This document shows positions 1 to 53,199 of a DNA stretch of 64,000 nucleotides, one piece after another. Origin of the DNA: Chlorokybus atmophyticus (taxonomy: Eukaryota; Plantae; Mesostigma and Chlorokybus algae); contig RHPI01002533.1 in the NCBI GenBank assembly GCA_009103225.1, positions 276,841 to 340,840 on the forward strand, read 5' to 3'. The notes under the pieces are model-generated. The model was not told the DNA's origin. It made no database searches and saw only the letters and a program-made list of their open reading frames with translations. Made by a program: the position numbers and the translations under genes. Position 1 is the stretch's first letter, and each line of letters opens with the position of its first letter.

Positions 1-3000
1 CAACTGGCACTTGAACAAGGCAAACAATGTGGAAAGTTTGCACGTAACTCTCAGTGGGCTCATACAAAACTTGCCTTTTGCAGATGCTTGCTTCCACATG
101 CTGCCTTGCAAATATCATGCGCTTCACCCACTGCATAAAGCGTTCATGTGCCCACTCCCAGTGGTCACGCGTCGGACCAAGCCACATGCACTGCTCTGGT
201 AGATGGCCAAGGAGGTGCAGCATCATTGTGAGAGAAGTTTGCGGGAAGAACAGCTCCACTTCAGACTGTGCCTCATGCACCAGCACCTGCAGCAAGTAAT
301 AAGCTATGCATGCTATAGAAGCTGGGCATGCAGAGTAAAGTGTTATTAAAGCCAACCTTCAATTCTTCGAGGTGTGACTGCTTTACTTCCAATGCAGTCA
401 GCCGTTGATAGATGTCGCATAGTTTGAAGATGATTCTCTTCTGATCTTCTCTAATGTCGTGTGCAGAGCGCAGCACGTACTGAAAAACGACCGACCATAA
501 GTTGTGCTTGTCGTGCAATTTCATCGAGCCTGCATGCTCCATGTCAAAAGTTTCATGCATGGTAAATCATTGCTTTAGCGTAAACACAAAACATATAACG
601 GCTATCTCACCTAAATGCTTTGTGAAAGACCGCAGTTTCGAGCTGAAAGTGCTTGAAACCCTCACGCCGGAGAGCAATTGCTCAACCAGTCCTACATCTG
701 TGATTGTCCATGGAGCCTGGGGTTTTACCTTGACTGCGACTTCCTTTCCATCCTTCATCTTCATCGCTGTCTGCAGCACATAGGTTCAAGTCCTTAGTTA
801 AATCCAACTATGGCACATGTCAACGAGGCCGACTATATACGTACCTCTAGCCAGAGTTCAGGCATGCGGCCTTGCTGCTGCAGATCTTCTCGTGATTCGA
901 TGCTGTCGCGCAAGCCAGCTAGAAGATTTGCAAAGTTGATTGCCAGGTTGGCAAAAATGTGCATAGGGCCAACCACATGACCTTTGACAGATTTTTGTAA
1001 CGGTAGCCAATATGGAAGGTCGTGAAAACAGCTCAGTCCAAGGATGCCGGAGGTCTTTGATGGATGTCTCTTGGAGTGCAGTGGACGCTTGGTGTTGCGA
1101 GATGTCATAGCATACCTAATCACATGGCATCCATTGCTGACATACCTATGTTCTGCAACCGAATGCGCAATTAATTGAGATTGCTCACCTGTACACGCTC
1201 TCTGCAGTCCGCATGGGTGGTGGAGGTCTGTCTTCTGGTTGCGGCCAACGCTCATCAACTCTGTAAGGATGGTCATCTAGTAGGTATTGGCGGTGGCCTT
1301 GATAGATCACCTTTTTGAGAAGTTCCACATGTTCTCCACTGCACTCGCACTTTGAACAGCCAAAGATGGCTCCATGCGCCATCTGCAAGGCAGCTTTTGC
1401 CAGAGCTGCGCAACCAACATGATGTACTTCAGTAGCCACAACCATGGTTGCAAGGATAGTCCGATATACAGATACAGTCAGACACTGATAACAGTAAGTG
1501 CAAACACTGCTGCTGCTTGCGTACCTGGGTAATCATGGATTACAATCTCCAGAATAGATCTGCAACGAAAAACTGCATCGCGGTGGCTGTCATATATGTC
1601 CATACCTACAACAAATGCTAGCAAATTACATGCCTCAGTCATGCGCATTTGTCAAGCATGACTGCAGTAATGGAAGCTGCTTATCCTAGCTGCGTTGAAA
1701 CCATACCTTCCCAGAGATCTCCCAACTGGTCAATAATTGGCTTGAGATAAGCCTGAAGATTCTCTGGCTGTATGGGTCCAAGAATTACAGCAAGAAGAAA
1801 TGTAGTGTCTGTCTTGTGCATCTTGGTAATGGGCAGGTTCAACACTGAGATTATGACAACCCAAAACTTATAGTTCCCTGCAACTCAACAAACCCTTTGC
1901 TGCCATTCGTACAGTTACACTGCAACGAGCATACAGAAAAAAAAATGCTCTTTTATACCTTTGTGCGGATCTTTGAACGGGTTCATCCCGTCGATGAACA
2001 TCGCTAGGCGCACATTGCGTGGTTCTTTGGCAAACCGGCTGTAGCGTTGTTCAGTGTCCTTGAACATTGGCGAGTCTGACAGCAGCAAGTACACCAAGGG
2101 CTTACGACCAACTGCCCCAGCCCCACAACACATTCAAACATGCATACAATCGCAAGGCTGGATACTGAGGTCTTACATACCGCCCCAGCACCTTGCCGAC
2201 ACACAAACAAACACAGGCAAGGACACCGAGGTCTTACATGCCGCTTCAGCGCCACGCCGACACACAAACAAACACAGGCAAAGACACCGAGGTCTTACAT
2301 GCCGCCTCAGCGCCACGCACACAAAAGCACAAGGCACGGACACTGAGGGCTTACATTAGACTGCCCCAGCCGCTCACCAACACAATCATGCACACAGTCG
2401 TGCCTCATTTACCACTGAACTTGGCAATGTTACCGTGTATAGATCGCATAATCCCATCCTGACTTCGATTTGTGTGCGCCATCATCTCCGCAGCAACACT
2501 AGGTTTTAGGTACAGAGCCCTCAGCGCAGCAGGCACGTCAAAGTAACGCCCAATCTTCCATGCAACTTGTCTACCTCCTATGTTGCGGTAGCGAGGGGCC
2601 TTGCAGACTGCATAAGCAAGTCGTATGCTGATGGGACATGCTAATCAAATCCCATTGTAGTGAACATTTGCAATAATTGCTCACCTTTGCAAAGTATCCT
2701 GTTGGCATGTCGGCCACAATACAACATGTGATCACCGCGACAGGCATCATATGTGTGGAAGCCCATGTTGAGGCCTTCAAGGCATTTCAATAGCTCGTGC
2801 ATGCTGCCTGGCATCTTATTCTCCTTAGGCAAGAGGATGCCACGCAACAACCTGGCACACAGAAACACATCAGTTCTGGACAGGCTGATGGTTCAAGCAG
2901 TCAGCAGTGTAATTTGCCCACCAACCTGAGCAGTATATTCATGAAATTGAAGGGTATTCAATGTAGCTGCGCCAGAACCAATAGCAGCATGGAAATGCCT

Positions 3001-3879
3001 AGAGGGGTTGTACGAGAGCCAAAAACAACAGGGTTGCTTGCATTATCCAGCAACGCAGCATTTACCTTGTCAAGTAGCATGGCATCATCAACGCATTTAG
3101 CCTCGTCCGGCTGCGATTCCACATCGGTTTCATAATCTTGGTCTTCGCCGGCAACATCACCTTGCTCCGCATCACCTTGCTCCGCATCGACTTGCTCAGC
3201 AGTGGAGGTGCAGTGCACTGGCGTCTCAGGCTCTACTTGTCCATTTGTGGATTTGGATCTGGCACCTTGATGCTCTTGCAATGTAGCATTATCAATTCCA
3301 CAAAATGCTGGGTGAGATCCGCGTTGTTCTCCATAAGCACACTGTCCTTCATCAGCACACGGATTACAACCTGCCAGCTGCAATGAGTCTAGTGGCACAT
3401 GAACAATGAGAGGCACAGCATCAGCAATGTCGACATGCCACGCAAGTCAGGTCGTACCTGCTGGTTGCAAGTTGGCTGCAACATTGAAAGGAGATTCAAC
3501 ACTCGGTTGCAATGGTGTGCCTGTGTCAACATGTTCAGTAGCGTCGTTCCCAACTAGCAATTGTTTGGTATCATGGAGAGCTTCACCTGGGGCAAGCCAG
3601 ATCAATGATCAGACAGCCTGTTGTATAGATTCACAGCTGTAGAGAAGGTGCTCTTGTACCTGACGACATGTGTAAGGATGCAGCAGCAACATCAGCATCA
3701 GCTTCTTCAAGTTCAAGGGGTTGTAGTCGATCACGGTATTCAGGAGCAACAGCTTCTGAAGTGCCACACCACATGTTTTTGCCAAAGTTTTCAGGATATT
3801 CAGCCCTTTCAATGTGGTTGTGTGTGAACACTTTGCTCCCTTTGCAGTCGCGGCAAAAACACTTGCGAAAGTAGCTCAT
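1..3879 (-). pseudogene. CACTA transposase (TnpD/Tnp2 type), multi-exon, disrupted, runs off window
   Basis: Ordered motifs on minus strand: KCFCRDCKG, LLPKENKMPGSMHE..YDAC, DGIMRSIH|DSPMFKD (intron 2076-2433), FAKEPRNVRLAMFIDGMNPF, VLNLP..YLKPIIDQLGDLW, KKVIYQGHRQYLLDDHPYR, LPYW..HVVGPMHI (usual D replaced by G), KLHDKH, FFPQ..MLHLLGHL..WAHERFM. At least one frameshift near 1790. Confidence 0.93.
2095..2372. repeat. ~60-bp degenerate tandem repeat (about 5 units) in a transposase intron
   Basis: Units with core GAGG(G/T)CTTACAT..CC(C)CAGC and ACACACAAACAAACACAGGCAA; lies wholly inside the GT..AG intron 2076-2433 whose removal restores HDSPMF. Confidence 0.9.
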
Positions 3880-4168
3880 GCTACAAACATCAAAAGCAGT
3901 CAGCCAACATACTGCAAGCAACTTCCAATCAACTTCCATACAACCAAAGCAAAAACCTGCAGGCACGCTGGCGCCGCTAACACCGCCGCCGTCGCCGCCG
4001 TCATGACTGCCTACCGTAAATTAGGGTTTAGGACACATCCAATCCCGATTCAAAACAAGCCGGAAAGTCAATCCGGATATGCTCCACAATTTGCGTACGT
4101 GCTCCTTTTCTTCTTCCGTCCAGTGCATTAGCTTCTAGGGTTTGTGTGCCAGGCAGCGTGGCGCCAGC

Positions 4169-5806
4169 ATGCGCGGCGTCAAAGTGTGTAGCTTCTGCAA
4201 AGCATACTTGGTTAAGAATGGCAACAACAAACGTCTGCAACAGCATGAAGAGAAGTGCAAGCTGTACAGTGAGCAGTATGGCTTCTATGAAGCCTGCTGG
4301 CACCACAAGGCAAGGGGGGACAATGTGAGGCAATGCAGACTGCTGGCACAATGCATGAGGCCAGATTTCTTTCGGGAGGAGTGCACTTGCCTGCAGTGCT
4401 CGCTTTCCAAGTTTGAGTGGGACGGCGAGCCCATGAATCACCTGCCTTGGGCACGGCCTGGAGCATATCATGATGGGCAGATGTGCAATGTGCTTCGACG
4501 TCAGCTCGTGCGCAACGGTCGCGGCAAGTCCACTGTAATCGAAGATGTCAACAACAGGGTGAGTTGAACTGTCCTTGCAAACAGCAAAACAGCGCTTGCA
4601 TGCATGACCAACTTACTCTTGAATGCCAAAGGGGAACGCGGTTGTCGACAATGTCGCGACACTGGCTGCTTGGCGGAAGGAGATTGTTGATGAGGGGCAG
4701 TCTTTGGTAGCATGCCGCGTTGTGGTGTACTGGCCAGGAATGAGCTCCTGGTATGCAGGCCACATCATCACTTTTGATGCCAACACAGGTATATTGCAGA
4801 GTATTTACATGCGCACGCTCATGCAAGCACCGGCTCAGGCAAACATGTGGCTCAGGAAAACATACCATCAAGTACGACGATTTCGTTGAGGACCCACGGC
4901 TGCACCACATCTTGATAAAGAACTGGAACATGGCAGCTGTGCGTGAGGGTTACGACGTAATGGTTCGTGTTGGTGGTCAAAGCTGTCTGAAACTGCAAGA
5001 CTTGCTGGTCGAGAGCTCGATTGATGGCCCAAGCCCCCACCCCTTCTGATCACACACACACCAATAGACTCAAGCGGAAGACGTTGCAGGCCGCGCGCAC
5101 TGGATGTCTTTTGCGGCGCTGGTAGTGTAGCCATGGGTCTGTACAGGGCAGGGTCTGATGTTGAGGGCATCGACAACAAGCCACAACCGTCATACCCATT
5201 CAAGTTCTGCCAGATGGATGCAATAGACGCTGACCCGACAGCATACGCTGCGGTGTGGGCAAGTCCTCCATGTCAAGCTCTAAGTGGGGCCATTCCCACT
5301 ACACAGCGCTCCGCGTACGGCAATCGATGGGAGCACGTCAACCTGATTGACCCCATAAGAGCCAAGTTGCAGTTGAGCGGCAAGCCATGGGTGATAGAGA
5401 ATGTCGCAGGCGCATCAGGACACATGACAACTCACCTTAAGCTGTGTGGCACCATGTTCAAGTTGGATGTGTATCGTCATCGCATCTTCGAGACAAACCC
5501 TCCACTGCACTAAGACTTGAAATGCAACCACACTGGTTGTGCACTTGGAGAGCTGGCCACCCACCCGGAGCAGCGCCGGCAGTTGCTACCTGGGGAGAGG
5601 CAAATTTACCCGGTGTACGGCCAAGCATCCTGCCGTGGCACGATTGCAGGGTGGCAGTCTGCCATGCAGGTGGAGTGGATGGATGCGGAATCGGAAGTCA
5701 AGAATGCCATTCCANAAATGCCATTCCACCAACTTACTAAAAGCATGTAGGCAGGCTGTTGCTGGAAGCAATAGGCTTCACAGTTGATTACCCTGCTTTT
5801 TACTAA
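4169..5806 (+). pseudogene. Spliced C2HC-zinc-finger / Tudor / C5 cytosine DNA methyltransferase gene with two premature TAA stops
   Basis: CSFC-x15-H-x3-C at N-terminus; introns 4559-4631 and 4789-4855 give LVACRVVVYWPGMSSWYAGHIITFDANTGKHTIKYDD (Tudor-like); probable intron 4943-5067; then LDVFCGAG (motif I, 5100), ASPPCQ (motif IV, Cys 5271-5273), VIENV (VI), RHRIF (VIII), NAIPPTY (X). Stops at 5511-5513 and after AIPPTY; single N at 5716 inside a short duplication. Confidence 0.88.
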
Positions 5807-6849
5807 AAGGTAGAGGTAGCTCTTGATTGCTGGCCACTTTGTTAGCCTGAACTCAAACCCAACAACAGAATGAGCGACCCAATAAAGTCAGCCAGAGGTC
5901 TTAATCACGAGGGTGCCTCTGTTTGCCAGCACGGGAAAGACTGACCTGCTGGGCAGAGTCTCTTTCAGAGCACCTTCATGCCCTGTTGCGCCGTCCGCCC
6001 ACCCGAGACTAGACCTCCTGCGGGTTCACTGCGAACGCAGGGTATGGTCCAACCAAAGCTGACTCACGAAAGTCATGAACCAGAGGCTCTGAGCATGTGC
6101 ACAAAGTCTACAGTACGTGACGTGCGCGAGACGGCTCTGCAGGACCACATCCTGCGTTTGCAGTCAACCCGCAGGAAGTTTTGTGTCGGGTGGGTGGGCG
6201 GAGAAGGAGAACTTCTAGGTTGCTGTGCGCATGCCTTTGGTTGCGTGCAATCTTTGGACACATGCCCGGTTGCAGCGGTTGCCGGGGCCAGTACGAGGGC
6301 GTGCCAGTACGAGGGCGGCATGTCAACAGCTGAGTCACCATATCCGCTGACATGTACACCTCGGGATTGCACAAAGATCTCGGAATTGTACTTCCTCTAT
6401 CCTGTACAATGACCACGAGATTGTCTTTCCTCTATCCTGTCATGTCAAGCTCCTGTCATGTCACCTGGAAGAACACCTCCACTTCCTGCTGGTTAGCAGC
6501 GAAAGCAGGTGGCACAGGCAAGAAGGGGGCAAGAAAGTGAGCAAGAAGGGGAATTCATCACAGGGTGTTGCCCCTACGCTCTGCATACAAAGACAGAATG
6601 AGCAAGCAGAGGGCTTATTCACGAGGATGCCTCTGCATTCAGCATGAGCTCAGACCCAAATCGAGAATGAGAAAACAGAGGGCTAAATCAAAAAGATGCC
6701 TGTGTGTTCAGCTGGAATTAATATATACACTTACACATGAGGTTGGCCCTACGCTGCGAGAACGATGTATGTTCGTTCTTAACAAGCTCTCTAATTCTGC
6801 ACAGGCATGGTGAGGTAGCAGAGGCTCCTGCAAACACAACCGCAGCAAA

Positions 6850-7499
6850 TGTTAACGAGAGCAATACTTGCAACTTTTGCTATTGTACAAGCAGTGTCCA
6901 TGCGTGTTCCAACCTGCAAAGCTGGTAGTCGTGAAGTGAACAACCTCGAGGTTGCTGTTACAGCTACCTCTGCTGCTGCGGCTGCTGCGGCTTCTGTGTT
7001 TCCTTCTGCTCCCGCCGCTGCTTCCGCTGCTCCTTTCCCTGCTGAGCCATTCGCTTTATCTGTTGGCGCTCCTCCTCCTTCTGCCGCTTGAGCTGCTGAC
7101 GCAGCTGCTCCTGCTGCTCAAGGGTCTCCTGTGCAGCTATCATCTCCTGCTCACGCTAATATGCAGCTTGATGTGCCAGCTTCTTGCCCTCCCGACGACT
7201 GTTGATTTGTTCCAATCGTTCCAATTTCCGCAACCTGCTTGGCCTTGCTTTGCCGAACTCAAACTTTGAACTATCTAGGAGGTGTGCTTGCTGTTTAACA
7301 AGCAAGGTCCGTTCTATAAGTCTTGGCAGCCGACACAAGCAAAATCGAACTGATCAGCATTCCAATCTTGGTTGCAAGGACCCTTGGGCACGCCAATGCT
7401 CACTAATTTCCTAAGTCCCTGGAGAAACAGTTGTAGTTTAAGGGCCTTAGGCACCAGCTCAACGCAGATGTTTGCCACCCCGCACAATTTTGCAAACTG
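6850..7499 (-). pseudogene. 3' part of OTU/gag-like gene (gag-like helix plus coiled coil), downstream of the Copia-1 insertion
   Basis: Removing Copia-1 and one TSD copy restores KYNAQFAKLC..LQLFLQGLRK; followed by a Q/E/K-rich coiled-coil with stops. Confidence 0.6.
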
Positions 7500-7504
7500 C
7501 GCGT

Positions 7505-7906
7505 TGTTGAGAAGCAAGCATGCAAGTGAAGAGGGCAAGCAATGACACACAGGAGAAGGCAACACACTTCCCGATTTATTACCAACAGACCGCGGGGTTA
7601 TATACCCGCCAGTCAGTACACAGTTTGTACACACTGCTGGTCTACATGCAACAGCGTCCGATATACTGAACCATATCCTACGCTGTAAGATGTGCCACGT
7701 AGCTAACTTGATAAGCTTTGTAACAAGCTATGCCACGTCCTATAAGACTAAGTATCATGGGAGATATGACGATTCTCCTAGGACCCTTCTCTGCAGTCCG
7801 CGCCAGGACCTTCTTGTCCGGAGTCTTCGAGGTCCTCCCATCGAGGTCCCTTCTCTTCTCTCTTGTATGCAGGGCAGGCTGACCGGATGTAGGAATATCT
7901 TCAACA
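7505..7906 (-). repeat. Copia-1 3' LTR
   Basis: TGTTGAGA..TTCAACA, near-identical to 12253-12654. Confidence 0.97.
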
Positions 7907-7951
7907 CTCCCACGCTGGCAGCTTGGCCTCTAACGCTTGGTCTTCTTTCAC

Positions 7952-10900
7952 CTAAGCACATATGCCGAGTCCCTTGCAACATGCCTTGAACTTCAGCGGT
8001 GACAGTGGCTTCGTCATGAAGTCCGCGAGCATGTCTTCCGTATTGCAATATTGGAACTCAACCTCCTTGCGTGTGACTCTGTCTCGCACAAAGTGATGCA
8101 TGACATCAATGTGCTTTGTCCTTGTCGAGGCAATGGGGTGCTTCAGCAACTTAATGGCGCCTTGGTTGTCGCAGTTGATCGTGATGCACGCCATCGGGTG
8201 CTCCAGATCTGCCATCAGCTTGCGAAGCCATAACGCCTCCTTTACTGCAGCCAATGCTGCCATGTACTCCGCTTCCGAAGTAGATGCAGCTGTTGTGGGT
8301 TGCAGCCTACTGTTCCAGCTCACCACGCCTCCATTCAACTTGAAGACGTACGCCGTGGTGGACCTCCTGCTATCGAGGTCACCTGCAAAGTCTGCGTCGC
8401 AATAGCCCTCCATCTCTGTGCTTCCGCAACCAAACTTGATGCCAACACTTGCGCTTCCAGCCACGTAGCGCAATACTCCCTTCGCTGCACGCCAGTGCTC
8501 CATGCTTGGTGCAGACATGTAGCGCGCAAGCACTCCAACTGCATGTGCGATGTCGGGTCTTGTGCACACTGCTAGGTAGAGCATACTCCCAACAAGCTCA
8601 CCATAGGGATACTGAGCCTTGTCGAGTACTTCCTCATCTTTCGCTTTGACGAGGTTGGTGCCGAGTGCCAATGGAGTAGACTTGGTCTTTGCTTCATTGA
8701 GTCCGAACTTGGTGACAAGTTGCTTCACCATCTGCTCTTGACTGATCTTGATTGTGCATGCTGCTCTGTCACGCTCTATCACCATGCCAAGAAATAACTT
8801 GACCTCTCCAAGGTCGCGTACTGCGAATGCTTGCTGCAATCCGTGCTTCGTTTCCTTCAGGTCTTCAACTTGCTTGGCCGTGACGATGATGTCGTCCACA
8901 TACACGAGCAAGTAAACCTTCTTCTCTTCATGGATGAAGAGCCCCGGATCCGCTGAGGATGCTTTGTAGCCGAGTTTCTCCAACTCTTTCGTGAGGCGAA
9001 TGTGCCACACACGTGGTGCTTGTCGCAGCCCATACAAAGCCTTGATCAACTTGCAAGCCATGCCTGGCTCCCCTTCTGCGTAGCCTGGTGGTTGCTTGGT
9101 GTAGATCTCTTCCTCCAGCTCTCCGTAAAGGAAAGCAGTCTTCACATCAAGGTGGTGACACTCGAGGTCTTCAGCAGCAACCATGGCGATTAATGTGCGG
9201 AAGGTTGCATGCTTACTTGCAGGTGCAAACACTTCATTGAAATCCACACCTTCTTGTTGCAAAAATCCCTTTGCCACCAACCTTGCCTTGTAGCGCTCGA
9301 TGTTGCCTTGACCATCACGCTTCACCTTGAACACCCACTTGACCGGAATGGGCTTCACACCTTGCGGGGGCTTCTCCAACACCCATGTGTTGTTGGCATG
9401 GAGTGATGCAATCTCATCATCCATAGCTCGCTGCCATTGTTCTGCATCTGGTGCTCGCAATGCCTCCTCGTAGGTGCTTGGTTCTTCACTCTCGTCATTG
9501 TGCACACTAGCGATGTGTGCCTTGTAGAAGTCAGGTGCTTGTCTTTCCCTCACTGGGTAGCGTCGAGCTTGCTCCTGCTGCTTCTGCTTCTCGCCTGCTA
9601 CAGATGAGCCCTGCTCTTTATTGATGACTGATGCCTCGCCTTCAACCTCTTCTCTGCTTGAAAGCTCTTCAGGTTGTGCTTTGTCATCTTCATCTTGAGG
9701 GTAGAAACCTTCTTCAGCTTCAACTTGTGATGAGCCTTCGTGGAACACGACTTCTCTGCTCACCACAATCTTGCGCGTGTCCTCCAGTAGGACCTTGTAC
9801 GCCTTTGAGCCTGGTTCGTAGCCAACGAAGATGCCCTTCTTGCTGACCGGCTCCAACTTGTGTCGCAATTGACTTGGCACAAGTGCATATGCCACACATC
9901 CGAACACACGCATGCCACTCACATCTGGCGCTTCACCGTAAAAGAGCTCCCACGGAGTCTTTTGCTCAGAGCTTATCGGTGAACGGTTGCGGATGTAGTT
10001 GGCAGTGAGAACGGCCTCTTTCCACAGACTGTCCTCCAACTTGGTGTCATTGAGCATGGCTCGAACACGCTCCAACAACGTTCGGTTGAGACGTTCAGCT
10101 GCTCCATTCTGCTGCGGAGTGTATGGTGCTGTTGTCTCATGCCGTATGCCTTTGCTGGCGAAGAACTCTTTGAGCTGGGCGTTGATGTACTCCCCTCCTC
10201 GATCACTTCTCATTGCTTTCATCTTCTTGCCCGATTGAATCTCAAGCAATGCAATGACTGTACGCACAGCTCCAGCGACTTCTGACTTTTGAATCAAAGG
10301 GAAGACGATGGAAAGCTTGCTGTAGTCGTCGAGGAATGTTGCAAAGTACCTTACCCCTCCTTTCGCCACAATGCGCATAGGCCCGCAAACGTCCATGTGC
10401 ACAAGCTCGCAGGGATGTTTGCTACTTGAAGAAGATGATGAGAACGGCATGCGATGCTGCTTGGCCAACACACAGGGTTCACAGAGCGTAGTTGAAGACG
10501 CTTGAAAATCTTCCTTGCTCTCAGTAATGCCCTTTACCATGTCTTCAGCGACCAGGCGTGTGAGGTTGCTATAGCCCAAATGCCCGAACCTTCGATGCCA
10601 AAGCTCAGCCGTTCCTTTCTTCTTCACAATCATGGCCTTGCTGCCATGAGTTTGCTCCACAATGTAGAGCCCTCCTCGTTGGGTGCCGACCATGTACTCG
10701 ACCCCATCCATGCGTACGGAGCAGCGTCCCTCCCGGATCACTATCTCAGCTCCCACGCGCTCAGCAACTCTCACAGAAAACAAGCTTGCAGCAGCTCCAG
10801 GTACGTGCAATACTTCACGCAGTACCACCTCTCTCTCACCATCACCAAACTTGCATTGAAGCCTCACTTCACCAACTCCTATTGCTTCCAACTCGTGACC

Positions 10901-11833
10901 ACTAAAGCCTTCCACCTTCCTTGTGGTTGACATCTTCCTGTAGTTCTCAATCACCTCCTTGTGCGGTGTGAGATGCTGGTCACAGCCTGAGTCAATTGCC
11001 CATGAAGTTGTATCAAACTTCCTTGAGGCAGTAAATGCAACACCCTTTTCTTTGCGTTGAGCGTTGCTACTGGTGCCTGCTTCAGATTGCTCTCGTTGGC
11101 GCTTACGACAATCCTTTGAAATATGTCCTTTAATACCACAATAGTGGCATGTGAGATTCTTGAACTTTGAGTTGCTGCCTTTCGCCTTGTTCTTGTCTTC
11201 ATAGTTGCTTAATTTCTTGTATTTGTCTCGTGTGTAGAAGGCCACAGAGTCCGCTTGCTCTTCCTTCTTTGAGACGCGTTGCTCCACAGTGAGCAACTTG
11301 GGTAGCACATCGTCTAGGGTTAGCTCCGATGACGATGTCTCGAGCAGAGTAGCGACAACTTCGTACTCTAATGGCAGTCCTGCAACAATCGCCAATACGA
11401 CCTCCGTCTCTTCCATCTTGTGGCCGACGTTGATGAGGTCCGCCCACAGCTCTCTCGCACGTGCAACATACTTTGTGACCGGCTCGGCCGTCTCTTTTTG
11501 AAGCGCGCTTAGCTGCTTGCGTAATTGTATCTTGCTGGCGTTGTTCTTGGCTTGAAATACGGCTGCAAGCTTCTCCCAAGCTTGTCTGCCATCTTCCCAT
11601 GCTGTGAGCATGGGAAAGTGATGTGGCTTGCAATTAAGCACCATCAATGAATGTGCTTCAACTGAGTGTTCAAGCCAGATGCTTTCTTCTCCTGCTCTTG
11701 GTGCAGATGCCTTCGGGTCAACATACTTCCACATCTTCTTGTGGATAAGTAGTGCCTTTATTTCTACGCACCAAGTGCTGTAATTGTTTGTGTCCAGCTT
11801 TGTGATCAGCCCTTTATCGTAGCTTGCCTCCAT
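7952..11833 (-). CDS. Copia gag-pol polyprotein (gag, zinc knuckle, protease, integrase, RT, RNase H)
   Basis: CHYCGIKGHISKDC, AIDSGC, LWHRRFGH, VHMDVCGP, RSDRGGEY, PQQNGAAER, YKARLVAKG, LVYVDD, YCDADFAGD, CDNQGA; Copia domain order; uninterrupted. Confidence 0.98.
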   Translation of the reverse strand: MEASYDKGLITKLDTNNYSTWCVEIKALLIHKKMWKYVDPKASAPRAGEESIWLEHSVEAHSLMVLNCKPHHFPMLTAWEDGRQAWEKLAAVFQAKNNASKIQLRKQLSALQKETAEPVTKYVARARELWADLINVGHKMEETEVVLAIVAGLPLEYEVVATLLETSSSELTLDDVLPKLLTVEQRVSKKEEQADSVAFYTRDKYKKLSNYEDKNKAKGSNSKFKNLTCHYCGIKGHISKDCRKRQREQSEAGTSSNAQRKEKGVAFTASRKFDTTSWAIDSGCDQHLTPHKEVIENYRKMSTTRKVEGFSGHELEAIGVGEVRLQCKFGDGEREVVLREVLHVPGAAASLFSVRVAERVGAEIVIREGRCSVRMDGVEYMVGTQRGGLYIVEQTHGSKAMIVKKKGTAELWHRRFGHLGYSNLTRLVAEDMVKGITESKEDFQASSTTLCEPCVLAKQHRMPFSSSSSSSKHPCELVHMDVCGPMRIVAKGGVRYFATFLDDYSKLSIVFPLIQKSEVAGAVRTVIALLEIQSGKKMKAMRSDRGGEYINAQLKEFFASKGIRHETTAPYTPQQNGAAERLNRTLLERVRAMLNDTKLEDSLWKEAVLTANYIRNRSPISSEQKTPWELFYGEAPDVSGMRVFGCVAYALVPSQLRHKLEPVSKKGIFVGYEPGSKAYKVLLEDTRKIVVSREVVFHEGSSQVEAEEGFYPQDEDDKAQPEELSSREEVEGEASVINKEQGSSVAGEKQKQQEQARRYPVRERQAPDFYKAHIASVHNDESEEPSTYEEALRAPDAEQWQRAMDDEIASLHANNTWVLEKPPQGVKPIPVKWVFKVKRDGQGNIERYKARLVAKGFLQQEGVDFNEVFAPASKHATFRTLIAMVAAEDLECHHLDVKTAFLYGELEEEIYTKQPPGYAEGEPGMACKLIKALYGLRQAPRVWHIRLTKELEKLGYKASSADPGLFIHEEKKVYLLVYVDDIIVTAKQVEDLKETKHGLQQAFAVRDLGEVKLFLGMVIERDRAACTIKISQEQMVKQLVTKFGLNEAKTKSTPLALGTNLVKAKDEEVLDKAQYPYGELVGSMLYLAVCTRPDIAHAVGVLARYMSAPSMEHWRAAKGVLRYVAGSASVGIKFGCGSTEMEGYCDADFAGDLDSRRSTTAYVFKLNGGVVSWNSRLQPTTAASTSEAEYMAALAAVKEALWLRKLMADLEHPMACITINCDNQGAIKLLKHPIASTRTKHIDVMHHFVRDRVTRKEVEFQYCNTEDMLADFMTKPLSPLKFKACCKGLGICA

Positions 11834-11904
11834 CTTTGCCGTGCCTGCTTTCTTCTTGCAGTTAGCACTCGAGACTTGCTTTGATAATCTTCACGTGTTG
11901 TGAC

Positions 11905-12180
11905 TTGAATGACTTTGAATGACTTAAGTGTCTTCGGTCTTCACTTCACTCTTTAGTGAGTTTTATGATTTCAGTCTTGACAACACTCTGTAGTGACTTT
12001 AATGACTTCAGTCTTATCTTCACTCTTTGGTGACTTTAATGACTTCGGTCTTGTCTTCACTCTTTGGTGACTATAATGACTTCGGTCTTCAGTGACTTCG
12101 CTTTACTTTACTTCACGTGATGTAGCGTCTTCACTTCAGTAACTTCAGTCTTGAATGACTTCAGTCTTCACTTCAGTGCA
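11905..12180. repeat. Degenerate short tandem repeats in the Copia-1 5' leader
   Basis: Recurrent AATGACTTC(A/G)GTCTT..CACTCTTT units between PBS and ATG. Confidence 0.7.
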
Positions 12181-12240
12181 CTTTCTTACTTTTCTTCACC
12201 TCGCTCTCTTTTTCTTTCTCACACTCTTCACGCGTAGTGT

Positions 12241-12252
12241 GGGCCCATAACC
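12241..12252 (-). promoter_or_regulatory. Copia-1 primer-binding site (half-tRNA iMet type)
   Basis: GGTTATGGGCCC directly after the 5' LTR; the same motif occurs at 16751 and 36994. Confidence 0.9.
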
Positions 12253-12654
12253 TGTTGAGAAGCAAGCATGCAAGTGAAGAGGGCAAGCAATGACACACAG
12301 GAGAAGGCAACACACTTCCCGATTTATTACCAACAGACCGCGGGGTTATATACCCGCCAGTCAGTACACAGTTTGTACACACTGCTGGTCTACATGCAAC
12401 AGCGTCCAATATACTGAACCATATCCTACGCTGTAAGATGTGCCACGTAGCTAACTTGATAAGCTTTGTAACAAGCTATGCCACGTCCTATAAAACTAAG
12501 TATCCTAGGAGATATGACGATTCTCCTAGGACCCTTCTCTGCAGTCCGCGCCAGGACCTTCTTGTCCGGAGTCTTCGAGGTCCTCCCATCGAGGTCCCTT
12601 CTCTTCTCTCTTGTATGCAGGGCAGGCTGACCGGATGTAGGAATATCTTCAACA
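12253..12654 (-). repeat. Copia-1 5' LTR
   Basis: Adjacent to PBS; matches 7505-7906. Confidence 0.97.
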
Positions 12655-12659
12655 CGCGT

Positions 12660-15248
12660 TATATTTGTCCACGGTGCGCTCCCCCTGTTGCACACGATGC
12701 AGCTTCTGGAAAGCACCGGAAGGCGTGTTGTCCCTTTGCAAAGCAGCTCGCTGTTGGCGGCGTGACGGGCGGCGTCTGCGTTTTTTAGTGTCACTGGTTG
12801 CTGCGGTGCTGATGTCAATTGACATATCACTGATAGCATCAGCCTCCTCCTCAACAGCGGCATCGACCTGCATAGCGCCAGCCTTCTGCTGGCTCCTGGC
12901 CTCAGCCTCCTGTCTTTGCTGGACTTTAGCCTCGTTGGCCTTAGCCTCCGCCTCCTGCCTCTGCTTGGCCTCGGCCTCCTCCTGCTGCTGCTTGGCCTCG
13001 GCCTCCAGCCTCTGCTTGGCCTTGGCATTGGCCTCCTCCTGCTTGGACTTGGCCTCCGCCTCCTGCCTCTGCTTGGCCTCGGCCTCCTCCTGCCGCTGCT
13101 TGGCATTGTCCTCATCCAGCTTGGCCTTGGCCTCCGCCTCCTGCCGCTGCTTGGCCTGCTGCTTGGCCTCCTGCTTGGCCTGCTTGGCCTCGGCATCAGC
13201 TTGCTGCTTGGGCTGGGGCTCGGCTTGCTGCTTGGGCTGGGGCTGGGGCTGCGGCTCGGGCTGGGGCTGGGCTTGCTGCTGGGGCTGGGGCTGGGGCTGG
13301 GGCTGGGGCTGGGGCTCGGCATCTGCAGGGTACATGCAGCGCAGGACTTCTGGTGGCATGTCGCTGCGCTGCCAAGAGAGTATACCATTTGCATCACCAA
13401 CAGACATGTAATGCGCGCTGGGCTTGCTTGGATCCGTGTTGCCAATGATTATATGGCCAGCCACATCGATAACATCCTCGCCAATCACCACTACAGGTTT
13501 GACGGAATGCTTCTCTCCCTTGGCATCCACTGTGTAGTACCTCCCGTCATCGCCTTCGATGAGGCCGCCCTTGTGCTCTGCTTCCCAGCAGTATAGCTTC
13601 TCATCGGCAACCTCAATGAGCTGCACAATACCGATGTGAATGCCAAGAGCGTGCGCCATGATCGCCACTTGCAGTTGATCGGCTTAAACGCTCTCTTCAG
13701 CAATCACTTTCTGCAGAGCCTCTACAGCGTTGTCTTTATCTTGCTTAGTCTTGAGTTGCTTTATGTTAAGTGCCCTGGTTACGCCATATTTCCTGGCCAT
13801 CTTTTTGTAATCCTGGCCCATGTCACCACAGGCCCCGTAGTTGCGATACTCCAGCAACCAATAAAGGTTGACCTGCTCAGCACAGATCTTCCGAAGCTTT
13901 TGCGCTTGCTCTCTTGTTGGCAGCTGTTTGCCATTGTCCAGCACAATGCTTCGCCAGAAAGACCCGTTGTCCGCTGCGTTCGCGCGTGTCAAGCACGCAG
14001 CGTTCACGCGAGGGCGCGACTGGGCAAGGCAGGCATAGAAGCAATTCCCATCTCTATAGGCATTGAAAAGCCGAAGCCGGTGTTTATAATGCAACAGCCC
14101 AACCAGCTCTAACTCGCCCTCCGTTTCTGCTGGAGGTAGACCGTCTTCTGGTTCAACAGCAGAAGCAGAGGTACCGGCTTCAGGTCGAGGCCCTTTCTGC
14201 TTTGTGCAATCTGGGACTTGGGTGGGGCCTCAGCTTTGTGCTTGGCCTCCGCCTCAACTTTCCTGCTGGGCCTCCGCGTCGGCTTGCTGCTTGGACTCAG
14301 CATCCGCTTGCTGCTTGGCTTGATCCTCCGCTTGCTGCTTGGCTTCCGCGTCGGCTTGCTGCTTCGCTTGGGCCTCCACTTGCTGCTTGGCCTCCGCGTC
14401 GGCTTGCTGCTTGGCTTGGGCCTCCACTTGCTGCTTGGGCGCCTCTGTTTCGTAGTCAAGACCGTATTCCCCGATGTCGATGCCCATAGCAGCTGCCTCT
14501 GGATCACATAGCCTTAGCTCTTCCTCCACATACTGCCGTAGCTTGAGCCTCCATTCTCGATTAAGGGAAGCCAAGTCTGGTTTGCACAGCGCTTTCTTGA
14601 TAAAGACCACCAGCTCACCCCATGACATGAGGTTCTTGCTCTTCGCCTTCGCTTTCCTCCAGTCAGAGAATTTTTTACCCCACTTTGTCTTCGTTTCTTC
14701 ATGGATGTCATTATCGGTAACAACATCTTCAAGGCCAAAATGCCCGAGGTCCATACCCCTAGCAGCTGCCTCCGGATCACAAAGCCTGAGCTGGTCCTCC
14801 ACGAACTTCCGTAGGCAGATCTGCAAGTTCTTGTCGAGCTCAAGCAAGCGAGGATCTTCATTCAGGTTCTTCTGCATTACTTCAACCACGACATCCCAAC
14901 TGTATTCTGTGGACATCTTCGCCTTCCCAGCCTTCTCCTCCTCCCTTAGTTTTCGCCAATTATTGAACCCCTCCAGCAACTGAGCCTTTTTGGTGTCAAA
15001 CAACCCCAGTGAGCATGCGTTTGTATGGTCAGCTGGAACAGCGCTACATTACTTGATTTCTTGCAGGGTTTCTGCAGGACAGCTTCCTTCTTAGCAGGTT
15101 CCTTCTTGTGCGCTGGACCCTTGTGCTTCTTGTCTGTGTGCATGACCAGTGTTACCACATGTTAACAATAATCATGCTGAACAAGCATACATTACTTATT
15201 ACCTGCAGGCTTAAACTGGCCAAGGGGAACGAGCTTTCGCTTGGACAT
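12660..15248 (-). pseudogene. Spliced gene: two ~90-aa repeats, Q/A linker, OTU cysteine protease, QP linker, start of gag-like domain; frameshifts and stops
   Basis: DGNCFYACLA (Cys 14041-14043), V*ADQLQVAIMAHALGIHIGIV (stop 13684 where OTU families have W), AHYMSV (His 13411-13413); duplicated LRLCDPEAAA.G.D.G..GL unit; GT-AG intron 15134-15202. Confidence 0.72.
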
Positions 15249-16325
15249 GATGAACGACCTGAGGAAAGCCTCACAGCCAAAAACAAGCACACATAGTTGA
15301 GCAACGTGAGCATGCACACACACACACGGCTGCCTATTTAAGCATGCAGACAAGCCTGAGCATGCACACTTTAGCCTCAGCCACAACGAAAACTGCATGC
15401 TCAAGTAAAACAGCTTAAAAAGTGAGCAAGAGGTGGTCTTACGCACGAGGCCGCCCCTCTGGTTAGCATCAAGTGGTGGCTAACAACATAGACAACATGC
15501 ACTTTTGATAGTCAGCGAATTGCTCAAACGGGCATGCATGCAAACAAAGACAAGCACGGCATGTTCTGCACCTTGTTGGAAGCAGTGCCAAAACCCTCCA
15601 GCAAGCCCACCCGAAGCTGCAAGAAACCACCTCGCCAGGGTTCTCGGACCCAATGAAGTAACTACAACAACCAAGCGAAAACACAACACTTGCACTTCAG
15701 CAATAAAGCCAACGCCGCCGCCGACCTCGCCAACAACGCCGCCCTTGCCGCCCAGCCTTGCCAGTTGCAAGTTGTGTGCTCGATCGCTACACCAAAACCC
15801 TAAGAAAACCCTAACTCATAAGCGTAATCGTCACAATGTACACCAGGGACTGTAGCGCGCGTCACGCATTCTATATAGGGCATTGAGTGTCTTGTCACGC
15901 TGGCTTAATGGATGTCAGGATTGGCGTGATGGTTAGACTGTACCTGGAGTGTGCAGGACTGACATGATGTCAGTGCCATCAGTGATGGGCTATCACCTTT
16001 GACGCCATAGCCAGCATCCCTAACCCTAACCCCAATGTTTTTGTAAGTTGTTGTAGTTTGCAAGGTTGGTGGCGGGGAGGTTGTTGTGGTCGGCGGCGAG
16101 GTTGTCTTGGTCGGCCGCGGCAGCGTCTTTACTTATAAAGGTTGTGGGCGGCGTGGTCGGCGACGAGGTGCTTGAGGTTGGCGGCGACGGCGGCAGCCAT
16201 CCTTGGTTGATGCAGAGCTACTTAGGTAGATACGTGCAAGCCTGCCTGCCTGCATGTTTTGTTTGTGCGCGTGCGTGTGTGTATGTGTGCTGGTGATTCG
16301 CTGGGGCGGCATGTAAGCCCTCCGT

Positions 16326-21234: not shown

Positions 21235-21540
21235 TCCGTGTCCTGCCTTGCGGTTTTCGTTATTTGCATGTGTTAGTGATTCATTGGGGCGGCATGTAAG
21301 CCCTCAGTGACCTGCCTTGTGGTTTTGTTTCTGTGATTCTGTTGGTGATTTACTGGGGTGGTCTGTAAGACCGCAGTGACCTGCCTTGTTTTTGTGTTTC
21401 TGTGCATGTGTGCTGGTGAGTCGCTGGGGCGGTCTGTAAGACCTCAGTGTCCTGCCTTGTGGTTTTGTTTTTCTGTGAATGTGTTGGTGAGGAGCTGGGG
21501 CGGTCTGTAAGACCTCAGACCGGCCCTGTGGTGTGGACTG
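21235..21540. repeat. ~60-bp tandem array (same family as 2095-2372, opposite strand); first unit at 16285-16325 split off by Copia-2
   Basis: Units GGTGA..CTGGGGCGG.(A/C)TGTAAG(C/A)CCTCAGTG.CCTGCCTTG. Confidence 0.9.
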
Positions 21541-21906: not shown

Positions 21907-22128
21907 TGTGCGTGCTGTGTTTGCTGCAAGCCGCTGGGGCAGCCTTGGGCATAACCCCTCAGTGGCCTTGCCTGTGCTGCAGCAAAAAGGTGTTTGCTGC
22001 AAGCCGCTGGGGCAGCCTTGTGCATAACCCCTCAGTGGCCTTACCTGTGCTGCGGCACAAAAGGTGTTTGCTGCAAGCCGCTGGGGCAGCCTTGGGCATA
22101 ACCCCTTAGTGGCCTTGCGGCAAAAGGG
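21873..22128. repeat. (GT)n microsatellite followed by three ~73-bp tandem units
   Basis: TGTTTGCTGCAAGCCGCTGGGGCAGCCTTG.GCATAACCCCT.AGTGGCCTT repeated three times. Confidence 0.9.
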
Positions 22129-22939
22129 TGTTCTTTCTGTGTGTGCTTGCGCTAGCATTGTGTCTCCCAAAAGTTATTTCCCTGCTCTATTTCTGACTCT
22201 ACTGTTGGTTAACTACGGTGTGTGATCCACAGGTAAACAGCTACCATTTAGCGATGTCCGGTCGCTTTAGGTCCAGTGTAGTTGATCTCGTCGAACATGA
22301 GGTAGGTATTTGGTCTTGACTCAGATGCTTGCATGCATTCAACAGAGGGTATGATAATCCAGCCGGCTGCTTCCAAGACAGCAGGTAAACCAGAGCTCGC
22401 ATGCCAGGCATGGTGTGTTTGTGGATGAGACTCAGATCAGAGTATTTGGCTCTGTGTTTTGGGTGTCTTGGCATTCTTACAGCTGCTATCAACAGGTTGA
22501 GCATTGCCTGCAGCATGTTTGCAGGACACCGCCAGTCACGGTGCCCAAGAAGTTGGCAAGAGCTCAAGCGACGACAGCGACAGATAAATGCATCCTTGCA
22601 TGCGTATCACATGAATGTGCATGTGTGTGTATGTTGTCCAGTTAGCTGGGGTTGATTGTAAGCCCTCATGTGTGTGTATGCGCGCGTGTGTCGCAAAACT
22701 CCGTGTTCACTACTTCTGCTGCGCAAACATACCTTGTATTTGTGCATATGTGAGTGCAGTTGTGAGGGGGTTTTCCAACAGCATGTTTGGGCAATTCTAC
22801 TGCCAGTGTTAGGCGCTTGCATGCCTGATTTGTGTCCAACAGTTTTGAGCGCAACCCGCTTTGCCTTGCAGGCTGTGCTACGGCCATGAGGTAATACAAA
22901 GTACAAGGTCAGATCTTTGCGTCATCCTTGCACAAGGCC

Positions 22940-28129: not shown

Positions 28130-28680
28130 AGTGATTATTCAACCAAACTGTGAGTGAATAACCACTTATATGTAGGACTATGTGTGTGAGCAGAAGTGCT
28201 GTATTATTCAATTATCATTTGCGTGAAAAATCAACCAAAGGCAGCAGTGTTCAACCATACTATGGGTGAATAACCACTCATATATAGGACTATGTGTGAG
28301 AGCAGATATGCTGTATTATTCAATCACAAATCGTATGAATAATCACTCGCTAGTATGGTACATGTGCTGTTGAAACAGCTTTAATATGTGTGAACATTAA
28401 GCCAATATGCGTGTGAATAATTACCTATAAGGAGGACCTAGTGTGAGGGCAGGCGCTGTAAATATTTACGCACACAAAGTATGAATAATCACTTGGTGCC
28501 ATGGTACATCTCTAGGACCATGTATTCCTAAGAAGACTGGATATGCAGTTCTGTTGCGAGTGAATAACTACTCACATGTAGAAGGTTGTGTGCGAGATGG
28601 ATAACTACAATTGTTCATGACCAAAACGTGTGAATATCCATTGCTTGTATTCAGGGCATTTGGCCTGAATAATCAGCAAT
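28130..28680. repeat. CACTA subterminal repeats, motif TGAATAA(T/C)CACT in both orientations
   Basis: About 8 direct copies (e.g. 28154, 28266, ~28335, ~28480, ~28560) plus inverted copies (AGTGATTATTCA near 28131). Confidence 0.85.
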
Positions 28681-28740
28681 CGTAACAGCGACCTCTGAGT
28701 GTTGTTGTCATGCAGATCTTCAGCCGCTGGCTCTGCAGCT

Positions 28741-44116: not shown

Positions 44117-47100
44117 CTAGGAATCTGCCCCGGTGATGATTCGCACAACCATGGTCAAGCGATCCATTGCCTTCGAGTACGTGTATATCCAACTCAACAC
44201 GAGAGCCACGTCATCGTAGTTGTGCAGCAGTGTATTGATGAACTTGGGGTGGCACTTGACGCACGCATGAAGCAGCTTCCTGCGCTCCAGATACTGCTTG
44301 CGCAGTTCCAACCGTGCAGCCTCCAGCTCGTGGATGGCGGCGCTGGCGCTGGCCTTGACATCTTTCTTAGACAAACTCTCATGTGTGTGCTCGCCGCTGC
44401 GAAGCATGTCCACTGCAGTCTTCACCATCCGCTCTGCCGCCCGCGACACCTCTGCAAAGTATGGCTCCAATGGCCCTGTGAGAAAGCGATGCAAGTCCCC
44501 ATTGTACCTGCACAGAACTGGAGATTGAATATTCTGTGTTCAAGTATGTGTACATGTGGCAAAGCATATCTTGAGGTCTACACTAACCAGGCTATTCTGT
44601 TTGACAAGCCCATAAGTGCTAGCAAAGTTGAAACCAAAGCGTCCAGGCCTTGTACTTGCCTGCCGGTAATCATTGGAGGCCTCTTGTTGACGATTGCCAT
44701 GGCCGCCAGTCTGTCGGACAAGGCCAGCATACCGGCGAGGGTTTGAGCAACAATCGGAGGCATGGCCAAGGGTCCTTTCTTCCACAGGACAGCCTCCTTT
44801 GCGAGGATCAGCTGCACTGCACTGAGGGGAGCAATCAGCGCTGACTGGAGGGAGAAAACCTCCCACTCGGGTGGTTGTTGATGTTGGTGGCTGAGCTTGT
44901 CACTGGCAATGGCAGATTTATCAACTTCATCGCCAATCGATCTGAACTCGTCGTGGAAAGTGTCAACCGCATGTTGGCCTTTCTCAAGTGTTTGTGCAAG
45001 TGTCTCCAGCGCCTCATCGGAAGCATACCACGGCAGGATGAGGTTGCTCACCACGATGGCGAACACACCGCCAATGACCATCGCCAGCGGCCTCGCGACG
45101 GCCCACGTCCAGTTGCCAGTGTCGCCTGGCTGCGGGGTGTACTGCTCGAGTGTAAGGATGTAAAGCGTGCTAATGGACAAGAAGACCGCATACATGAACT
45201 GCGTGGACATAAAAAGACCCATCACGAAGGTAATGACGCTTAGAATGGCCCCGAGTACAAGTGGTTCCGATGCGACTGCCGCATTGGACATAAGGCCGTA
45301 TGCAATAGCCGCGGCAATGATGGTGGCAATGATGCGCAGCATTGCACGGAGCACTGTCGTGTCCACCTTTGGGAAGATCGTAAGCATGACGCAAAAGTAG
45401 GCCCACAGAGGCTTCCAATCCGAGACGGTTTGTATGTGTTGAATGCTCAGGACCACGACGACCACTGTGGCGGTGCAGAGCCACCACTTGCATGCGTATT
45501 GGAAGTTTCTCGACCGCAGCATGTACGTGAAACTTTCTCTGGATTTCAATCTTTTTGGCAGGTGGTTGAAAAACACGTCTTTCCAACGCTTAACGAGTGC
45601 ATAGCCACTCAGCGCCATCGCATGCGGCACTACAAAAGAGAAGTTGGCTTTCAACCAGTGCTGAGATTTCTGCCTCAGGGTCGCTCCCTCCTTGTCCAGA
45701 GCCTGATAGTGTTGATTCTTCACCGCATTCTTCACGGCAGATTCCAGGTCCTGCAGATCTCTTATCATCTGATGGGTCACGATCGCGGTGAAGATGAGCG
45801 CTCGCACTTCCGAGGTTGGCGCTATGATTTGCCCGTCCTCTTTTAGTACCTTGTCATCGCAGCGAGTCAACATGTTGGAACAATCTGACCGCCGCTTGCA
45901 ACCAGTTGGAACTTGTCACTTGACTTTGGTAATACAAATTGCAAACAACATAACTTGATGTACTCACGCGCGCGCGCACACACACACAGAGCGAGCGAGC
46001 AAACAAGAGACTGGCTTGCCTGGGTCCAAGACAAAGCCCACCTGTGCCCAGTATCTATTGAATGCTGCTTTCAGGCCAGTGGTGTGCACGTCCACGTACC
46101 GCTGCCAGGCCACGCGCTTGACTCTGCAGAGTGGTGACGAGCCCATGCGGTCTGCATCGCCTCGCACAATGAACGCAAGTCCGGCACAGACGGCAGCCTG
46201 CAAGATTTCCCGCGTGATTTGCATATAGGGCAAGTGTTTGCGTGCTTGCGTGTGCAAATGAGAGTGTGAGCACACCATGTCGGCGTAAAGGTAGCGTATC
46301 AGCGGAATCTCCTCTTCAAGAAACCACTTGAGAAGCGTCCTGGTGTGGAAATGCCTGCCACCTGCACTGTGCAATCGACTCATCATCCATGCCACCACAC
46401 CATGGCTGCATCCGTAAGCTACTCCGCTTCTTTTACATTACTTTTAGGCAGTCAACGCAACAAGAAAGCACCTTCCAGCACCATCTCCAGTGCCGTCACA
46501 GTCGTAATCAACTTGTTGACGGCCTGCAGCAGCCGAGTCATTGGCTGCACTCCTAACAACGTTGATGATTGACAAAGACCAGCAAATCACGCACTATCAT
46601 GCCTGAATGACTGGATACCACTCGCTGAGGTTGTAGATGCCATCCACCCATGGGGGCTCCATGGCGGCAATCCCAAGCGCCAGCTGCACTTTGGCAACAT
46701 CGGGCCGCAGAGTCGCAACGTGGAACGCTGATGAAGGCGACCGATCTTTCTGCAGCTGCTCCGGGCTGGACAGGTTTTGCAGCGTGTCCAAAACCTCATT
46801 GTCCGCCGGCTCCTGGCGACTACTCCAGCGACCCATCCCTGAACACCGCAGTGACGAACGCATTGGTAACACGCGTGGACAACGCACACCACAACAGCCT
46901 GGCCAGAGCACTTATACTGTCATCTGCAATGCAGCACGACTGAGTCATATAACTGCCACCTTGCTGTACCAGCACATGCCTCCACAACATACATGATGTG
47001 ATGCAGAAAGACTGTGCATGCCCATGATGCTAGGCAGCATAGCCCCCACAACCTCTGCAGCACAACAATCTTGAAAAACCAAACGCCTCTGCTCACTCAC

Positions 47101-52074: not shown

Positions 52075-53153
52075 GGGCGTTGATCGCCACAATCAGGCAG
52101 GCGTTGACCAGTCACCAAGCTCGGCGTCAGCGTTTGCTATCCTTGCCAGCAGATGGAGAGGACATGCACTCCACAAGCACTGCATGGGCGGCTGTTGCTA
52201 CGATGCGAGAGCATGTCAGCATTTGGTATTGCTTTCCGCGGACACAAGCGTGGTTTGATAGAGTCGTGTCTGTACATTGGCCTGATGCTATGTGGAAGAC
52301 TCACTTTCGTTTGAGTGCAGCTTCATTCAATGCATTGTGCCAGGCCTTATCTAACACTGAGTTATTTAAAATCGATACACGCTTTAGAGAAGCGATACCA
52401 TTGCATAAGCGGGTTGCCATAGGGTTGCATAGGCTTGGACATGGTACCCCTTATCATGTGTTAGGTGAGTTGATGGGTGTAAGCACTGCTAGTGCTTGCC
52501 AAATTTGTGAGCAGTTTGTGCGAGTTGTCAGTGCAGAACTGCGTGTCTTAATAGCATGGCCGGAGGGTGCGCGCTTGAGGCAAGTAATGGCGCGTTGGGA
52601 GGGTAAAGGATTCCCAGGCTGCGTAGGCGCTATAGATGGCAGTCACATTATGATCAAGAAGCCGACTACTCCACACGCTGCTGATTACTTCAACCGCAAA
52701 GGCAGCTACTCCATCATCCTTCAAGTAAGCGTGTACCTATCTATGCAACCTATGCAAGTATGACCCATGCATTGTGTTGCCACAAGTTGTGTCGTACATA
52801 AAACTGCATGCGTGCTGCAGGCCGTGGTCGATTACGACCTGCATTTCACCCATATCGACATCGGCTGGCCCGGCAGTGTGCATGATGCAAGGGTGTTCAG
52901 CAGTTCCGGGTTGTATCGATCCATTTACCAAGACAAGACCATCATGCAAGAGCCCATCCTGACACTTGACTCTGGTGATCGTGTGACCCCTTACATTCTC
53001 GGTGATGCTACATACCCGTTAACTCAACACCTGATCGTGCCCTACCCAGGACAGCGTGATGCTTTACCTGAGTGGCAGAGTGTTTTCAACTTCCGCCACT
53101 CGTCCGCACGCATGGCTGTTGAACGAGCGTTCGGGGTGCTCGGCACAACGTAA
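52075..53153 (+). CDS. Harbinger DDE transposase (5' end in gap; C-terminus apparently truncated)
   Basis: FRLS, RVAIGLHRLGHG, GCVGAIDGSHI, YFNRKGSYSIILQ|AVVD (intron 52725-52820), GWPGSVHDARVF, ILGDATYPL, FNFRHSSARMAVERAFG. Confidence 0.93.
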
Positions 53154-53199
53154 GCATGCGTTCGGGGTGCTTGGCACAACGTAAGCATGCTATTGCCAA

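Follow-up and report, generated by a model that had tools for sequence, protein, structure and literature searches.

The 64,000-nt stretch of Chlorokybus atmophyticus DNA analysed here (the window) carries a gene whose product combines a Tudor domain with a compact C5 cytosine methyltransferase, head-to-head with a CACTA/EnSpm transposase gene. In related copies the Tudor domain is joined in frame to the methyltransferase; the copy in the window is dead and decayed. In type it is a compact C5 enzyme like those of phages and bacteria, distinct from DNMT1, DNMT3 and CMT; its nearest relatives appear to form a clade on the eukaryote side, most members of which have an inserted MBD, and not to be phage enzymes. 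The adjacency of the transposase gene and the co-occurring variants of both genes make it probable that the Tudor-methyltransferase gene is cargo of the CACTA transposon.

The window is eukaryotic in character, with approximately 50% GC, short GT..AG introns and copia, gypsy, pogo and Harbinger elements nested throughout (Table 1). The region is also present, as unspliced contigs, in two runs from two studies (X1 and X2), each of which holds a close variant (about 98% identical) and a divergent one (about 88%).

Table 1. Features of the window, with coordinates, strand and the evidence or remarks attached to each.
Feature	Position	Strand	Remarks
CACTA/EnSpm transposase gene	1..3880, runs off window start	-	many short introns
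Divergent intergenic region, 288 nt	3881..4168		telomere-like boxes at 4021 and 4136
Exon 1	4169..4558	+	130 codons without stop, Cys/His-rich, CxxC..H..C pattern
Predicted intron 1	4559..4679	+	donor at 4559; two possible acceptors, 4631 and 4679, each in frame
Tudor domain, first part	4680..4788	+	PDB 7DE9 match; weak LBR_tudor/Tudor_KDM3B
GT..AG intron, 67 nt	4789..4855	+	RDM15 register; divergent-copy indels inside
Tudor end (KYDD) and linker	4856..5093	+	window copy: frameshift near 5004, stop at 5022
Compact C5 cytosine methyltransferase	5094..5806	+	phrog_363, C5 motifs, fold match
Inverted repeat of 79 nt	5972-6220		76% complementary; directly past the methyltransferase stop
Gene with OTU-like protease motifs	6900..15250; motifs 13330-14070	-	QA/EA-rich repeats, one stop
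Copia element	7505-12652		splits the OTU-like gene; 5-nt target duplication
Telomere-like boxes	4021, 4136, 15795-15813, 16018-16029		at both divergent gene pairs; motif scan
Intron minisatellites, 60-73 nt	2085-2400, 16270-16325, 21238-21532, 21917-22135		
Clustered direct and inverted repeats	28130..28702		GAGTG at end; then a pogo DDE_1 fragment starting mid-gene
FUSC/ALMT-like host gene	44581-45915	-	
Harbinger-type transposase and Myb/SANT partner	52764-53811		

All the main C5 motifs listed in the initial annotation were confirmed in position (FCGAG at 5109-5123, SPPC at 5262-5273, ENV at 5397-5405, RHRIF at 5475-5489 and NAIP(P) from 5703 on), motifs I, IV (PC), VI (ENV), VIII (RxR) and X following each other in the canonical order. 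The variable region, said there to be very short, spans approximately 103 aa from ENV to AIP, against a prokaryotic median of 94. Profile and structure searches, proposed earlier as a check, returned phrog_363 (E 1.4e-21), a C5 fold and a Tudor match to 7DE9, but the score against Pfam DNA_methylase (13.3 bits) lies below the cut-off of 22. The window methyltransferase was matched by 1043 of the 1152 candidate proteins and by 310 of the 50,697 phage records, the best of these at about 39-40% identity. With the AF2 model of the domain (pLDDT 72, from 11 sequences), all 39 of the PDB matches listed were C5 methyltransferases, at 11-19% identity, and the best viral structure match was a Pithovirus C5 methylase (34% identity, E 3e-15). 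Taken together, the phrog_363, phage-record and structure matches indicate a compact prokaryotic-type enzyme. In agreement with the class assigned before, traits of DNMT1/CMT or DNMT3/DRM were not found, with no Pfam match to BAH, RFTS, PWWP or ADD and no DNMT among the phmmer PDB matches. PWWP is often present in ChloroDNMT and orphan DNMTs (Sarre et al. 2025; PMC12344493), and the window ORFs scanned gave no Pfam match to it. From its sequence, the methyltransferase is predicted to be able, in intact copies, to methylate DNA cytosine.

Upstream of this domain, the second exon matched in the PDB the Tudor domain of Arabidopsis RDM15 in complex with H3K4me1 (7DE9, E 0.0098), the pocket of which is formed by Trp616, Tyr623, Tyr641, Asp643 and Asp645 (PMC8184781). 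Once the 67-nt intron is removed, W, Y, Y and D fall without any gap on W616, Y623, Y641 and D643 of RDM15. Four of the five residues of the methyl-lysine pocket are in exact register and the fifth position, where RDM15 has Asp645, is occupied by Val in the window copy, so that the H3K4me1 specificity of RDM15 is not transferable. The indels of the divergent copy lie within this same intron. Both observations uphold the earlier proposal of a Tudor-like domain created by splicing of a 67-bp intron, and make this domain a credible candidate for a methyl-lysine reader. Joining exon 1 to the Tudor domain requires the further intron predicted in Table 1. The stretch 4561-4676 is tandemly duplicated in some X1/X2 copies, which is consistent with it being intronic, and a diverged stretch also falls in this region; an acceptor at 4700 was disfavoured because EGQSLV aligns with SGESLV of RDM15. 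As to the N-terminal C2HC finger claimed before, the cysteine and histidine pattern is present in exon 1, but no match was obtained in Pfam, PHROG, PDB or Atlas and the AF2 model of the exon is of low confidence (pLDDT 48).

Between 4853 and 5363, both variants present an extra base after 5004 and a C at 5022, at full depth (48/48 in X1 and 31.5/31.5 in X2), which brings the Tudor exon into the methyltransferase frame. In the same interval 18 more nt are present in the divergent variant, with the frame kept, as judged from indels alone in a variant with 59 substitutions. The fusion suggested by the initial annotation is thus found in the X1 and X2 contigs, in two variants, but the splice it had predicted between the two domains (4943-5067) is not supported, because the stretch encodes a conserved peptide and the X1/X2 frame, carrying both domains, runs through it. 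Within this stretch PPLLxTxxPxxxxGxR aligns with a Chromochloris protein and PxDxxG with the clade of relatives described below, and the peptide encoded by 5025-5093 is conserved among relatives. An in-frame intron of smaller size, running from 4943 to 4999 or 5013, may be present and would leave the fusion intact; by read-through or by such an intron, the predicted product is a Tudor-methyltransferase fusion either way.

The decay of the window copy goes beyond the two premature stops first reported. There are three stops (TGA at 5022, TAA at 5511 and TAA at 5738), the frame is shifted by one base close to 5004, and a 14-nt duplication that includes an N occupies 5703-5716. Where the close-variant contigs of X1 and X2 cover these sites, they show neither the stops of 5511 and 5738 nor the 5703 duplication. 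An alternative nuclear code (TAA = Gln) was ruled out because the standard code leaves an ORF of 1312 codons open in the copia element, and also because the window stops are missing from other copies. Comparison with X1 shows 74 positions where a C:G pair has been lost from the window copy and 17 changes in the reverse direction. Among 65 differences examined, 39 are C-to-T, with 10 of these 39 in a CG context against a background of 15%. Read as a trace of self-methylation, this C-to-T excess is countered by the lack of a clear target motif in the contexts of the 39 changes, and host methylation explains it equally well.

The minus-strand gene at the start of the window gave three Transposase_21 pieces, two above the cut-off (E 2.7e-8 and 7.7e-9) and a third at E 2.6e-5, and a DUF4218 match above the cut-off (E 1.1e-9). 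These matches identify it as a CACTA/EnSpm transposase gene, as had been proposed. With a single transposase exon as query, the homologue search gave no match. Like the methyltransferase gene, the transposase gene has decayed in the window copy, with a likely nonsense codon at 2958-2960 that X1 and X2 do not have; in its divergent copy the exons are kept and the differences are found at introns. We take the transposase to start at 3880 on the minus strand, on account of its CxCxxC-rich N-terminus. With this presumed ATG, the distance to the ATG of the methyltransferase gene at 4169 on the plus strand is 289 nt, in line with the roughly 290 bp noted earlier. The 288 nt between the two start codons contain no terminal-repeat-like end and likely function as a two-way promoter.

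Two sequence variants of both genes are present in X1 and X2. Record 11 of X2 (2289-4264) bridges the transposase and the start of the methyltransferase gene. The depth of the divergent transposase exons is 9.6-12.7 in X1 and 7.7-11.3 in X2, and that of the divergent methyltransferase 14.8 and 10.3, respectively, depth being no measure of copy number; the divergent transposase and the divergent methyltransferase are joined by none of the contigs listed. Carriage by a cut-and-paste transposon, as put forward in the initial annotation, is therefore favoured by adjacency and by the co-occurring variants, but the ends of the element were not found. Neither a terminal inverted repeat nor a target duplication was detected in the window, the left end lying beyond it, and the search for terminal repeats of the CAC(TA/TG) type gave a single candidate, at 28702, with its counterpart beyond the window. 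The repeats that close at this position are a candidate for the distal end of a large element; in this unproven case, the element would exceed 18 kb without its two copias.

Other features of the window may be related to the same element. The gene convergent with the methyltransferase gene, which may, from its motifs, encode an OTU-like protease, gave no significant database match; it is possibly further cargo, its membership of the same element being putative. The copia element which splits it has near-identical LTRs and is missing at the corresponding site in both X1 and X2, and is therefore a recent insertion. The minisatellite units are related between the transposase intron and the plus-strand gene at 16.3-21.5 kb, and could serve as binding arrays for an element protein. 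Telomere-like eight-mers occur seven times in the window, compared with approximately two expected.

The relatives of the enzyme were sought with a profile (window protein and its best match) run against 1.84 billion representatives, and proteins well above the phage background were present among the best 150 of 4903 matches. The phylogeny proposed in the initial annotation was carried out in part, as a quick tree of 80 rows (the window protein, 19 chosen proteins and 60 random ones from the other matches of 190-300 aa), supported by SH-aLRT only and with DNMT1/3 left out. In this tree, the window protein groups with nine proteins (P0001, P0136, P0139-42, P0150, P0152 and P0191) with an SH-aLRT of 99. 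A Pfam MBD match (E<=0.05) lies within the variable region of five of the nine, above the cut-off in two; P0001 carries an insert that resembles it, P0142 and P0191 are incomplete and stop short of this position, and P0150 gives no MBD match. P0152 is UNPLg00428 of Chromochloris zofingiensis, with zero expression in six of six samples (PMC7161124 supplement), and the remaining proteins of the clade are presumably eukaryotic. The Cys, ENV and motif I are kept across the clade at 40-50% identity, and a C-terminal signature motif occurs in 7 of 292 proteins, all of them the window protein or clade members. The window protein and its close variant in X1/X2 have no MBD in the variable region and carry a Tudor domain instead. 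Since the closest relatives form a eukaryote-side clade, the phage/bacterial transfer predates this element. The earlier description of a horizontally acquired, intron-gained enzyme is hence retained for the phage/bacterial type, but the acquisition is older and, as no intron was seen within the methyltransferase domain, the gain of introns is limited to the N-terminal part.

Scans of metagenome loci (80 of 213), of viral sequences and of prokaryote genomes (80 of 543 loci) gave enzymes of phage/bacterial type only, among the loci listed. The MBD-insert profile matched 0 of 316 loci, and transposase or Tudor matches were present in 0 of 236 loci, all of phage/bacterial type. A search for longer methyltransferases gave five matches, none with a Tudor domain, a weak result as spliced genes are poorly represented. 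A second group of eight proteins with the same methyltransferase (P0145, P0148, P0153, P0154, P0158, P0185, P0193 and P0214) has a different long insert and is at least partly marine; one cluster has Tara members, and the group was not found in the IMG/VR scans. Tandem double methyltransferases were also observed (P0137, P0138 and P0121), as well as fusions to an IS1595 transposase domain (P0190) and to a primase-polymerase (P0124).

The reading that we tentatively prefer is that a large CACTA transposon carries the Tudor-C5 methyltransferase as an accessory gene, the product of which reinforces methylation on the element's own copies. The transposase and the Tudor-methyltransferase would be co-transcribed from the two-way promoter, the Tudor domain would anchor the protein to methylated histone H3, and the methyltransferase would add 5-methylcytosine nearby, most likely on the copies of the element itself. 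This read-and-write loop would keep the expression of the element damped and the element tolerated. A feed-forward loop is favoured here since the MBD of the sister proteins and the Tudor domain both bind already marked chromatin. We regard as unlikely that the enzyme aids the activity of the element, either through gene-body-like or non-host methylation at transcribed chromatin, to which the Tudor domain would bring it, or through end methylation controlling the binding of the transposase. In favour of this, a promoter region in common with the transposase points to joint expression while the element is active, the cargo of other DNA transposons has been read as anti-silencing (TET in EnSpm, PMC12730594; PAG genes) and plant Tudors of this type bind H3K4me1 (PMC8184781), but the sister proteins carry an MBD, a binder of already methylated DNA, and 5mC on repeats is mostly a silencing mark (PMC12344493).

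The gene could also lie outside the CACTA element, as a host gene, a giant-virus relic or the cargo of another element. The lack of a terminal-repeat-like end in the 288 nt between the start codons argues against this, together with the bridging of the gene pair in X2, the divergent twins of both genes at like depth in two runs, their joint decay in the window and the lack of any viral hallmark gene in the ORFs scanned. On the other side stand the element ends not found in a window full of nested elements, the Pithovirus enzyme as best viral structure match and the related marine group, which includes records from a Tara sample; on the whole, the probability of this origin appears low. A passenger gene, made of fragments captured in Pack-CACTA style and with no role for the element, is very improbable. 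The one copy observed in full length is broken, the Chromochloris relative is silent and exon 1 has no known family, but all the catalytic motifs and most of the pocket residues are kept, the Tudor-methyltransferase frame is maintained between variants approximately 12% apart, and the conservation within the clade of relatives points in the same direction.

Beyond the reinforcing role preferred here, it is conceivable, if rather doubtful, that these proteins represent a family of C5 methyltransferases of phage origin, eukaryotic and so far undescribed, mostly scoring under the Pfam threshold and spread among algae by DNA transposons. In this family the readers would have been swapped, the majority having an MBD within the target-recognition region and the present CACTA lineage an N-terminal Tudor domain. 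If this is true, such elements would bring their own read-and-write loop in a protein of 250-500 aa. The two types of protein also offer an example of a prokaryotic enzyme that has acquired two distinct eukaryotic reader domains. The MBD-bearing clade is weak against Pfam DNA_methylase, and eukaryotic DNMT surveys may therefore have missed it. Should the gene prove to be active cargo, a cut-and-paste transposon would write its own 5mC where a histone mark guides it, and the question of why transposons capture methyltransferases could be put to the test with a small enzyme in an alga.

Transposon-borne methyltransferases are already known; the C5-Tudor combination and the reader swap are undescribed in the literature searched, in which neither a CACTA-borne C5-Tudor fusion nor an MBD-inserted compact methyltransferase was found (Repbase and most subscription papers being outside this search). 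The rotifer N4CMT reportedly unites a prokaryotic methyltransferase with a eukaryotic histone reader (chromodomain), but as a host gene and with N4-cytosine chemistry, whereas the present enzyme is of C5 type and is likely transposon cargo. The phage and bacterial C5 methyltransferases of phrog_363 share with the window enzyme the motif order, the short variable region and about 40% identity; however, they are stand-alone proteins of 200-240 aa without Tudor or MBD, and the nearer kin of the window protein is the clade with MBD inserts. The likeness to the Arabidopsis RDM15 Tudor (PDB 7DE9; PMC8184781) is restricted to the W/Y/Y aromatic cage and Asp643 in register, RDM15 having no methyltransferase and Asp645 where Val is found here.

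Among mobile elements, the literature on transposon-borne methylation enzymes (including PMC11244446 and PMC12344493) offers several comparisons. DNMT-carrying retrotransposons comprise SymbioLINE-Dnmt and DIRS/Copia-Dnmt3 (PMC5890265) and the EpiLTRs, with a chromodomain, DAM and DNMT (bioRxiv 10.64898/2026.05.21.726589). As is probable in our case, these algal elements bear a C5 methyltransferase, for which self-methylation has been proposed, and the EpiLTRs pair it with a histone reader, but their enzymes are DNMT3, orphan or DNMT4-related, in contrast to the compact phage-type enzyme of the putative cut-and-paste element described here. Mariner-1_OLpv of a giant virus is likewise a DNA transposon encoding a C5 methyltransferase (PMC3627910); it is viral, paired with a restriction endonuclease and without a chromatin reader. 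EnSpm, Plavaka and other fungal DNA transposons carry TET/JBP (PMC12730594), also a cytosine-modification enzyme in EnSpm, but a fungal eraser where the present one is a writer. The view of the initial annotation that no CACTA example had been described holds for the C5-Tudor fusion in the literature searched, but has a precedent in the giant Plavaka elements (EnSpm/CACTA superfamily) of red algae, whose PAG2 is a 6mA methylase-SET gene (bioRxiv 10.1101/2025.02.11.637652). Like the putative element of the window, these are large CACTA-superfamily elements with accessory genes, one of which associates a methyltransferase with a chromatin domain; PAG2 joins an N6-adenine methylase to SET, a writer, whereas here a C5 enzyme is joined to Tudor, a reader, beside a Transposase_21-type enzyme.
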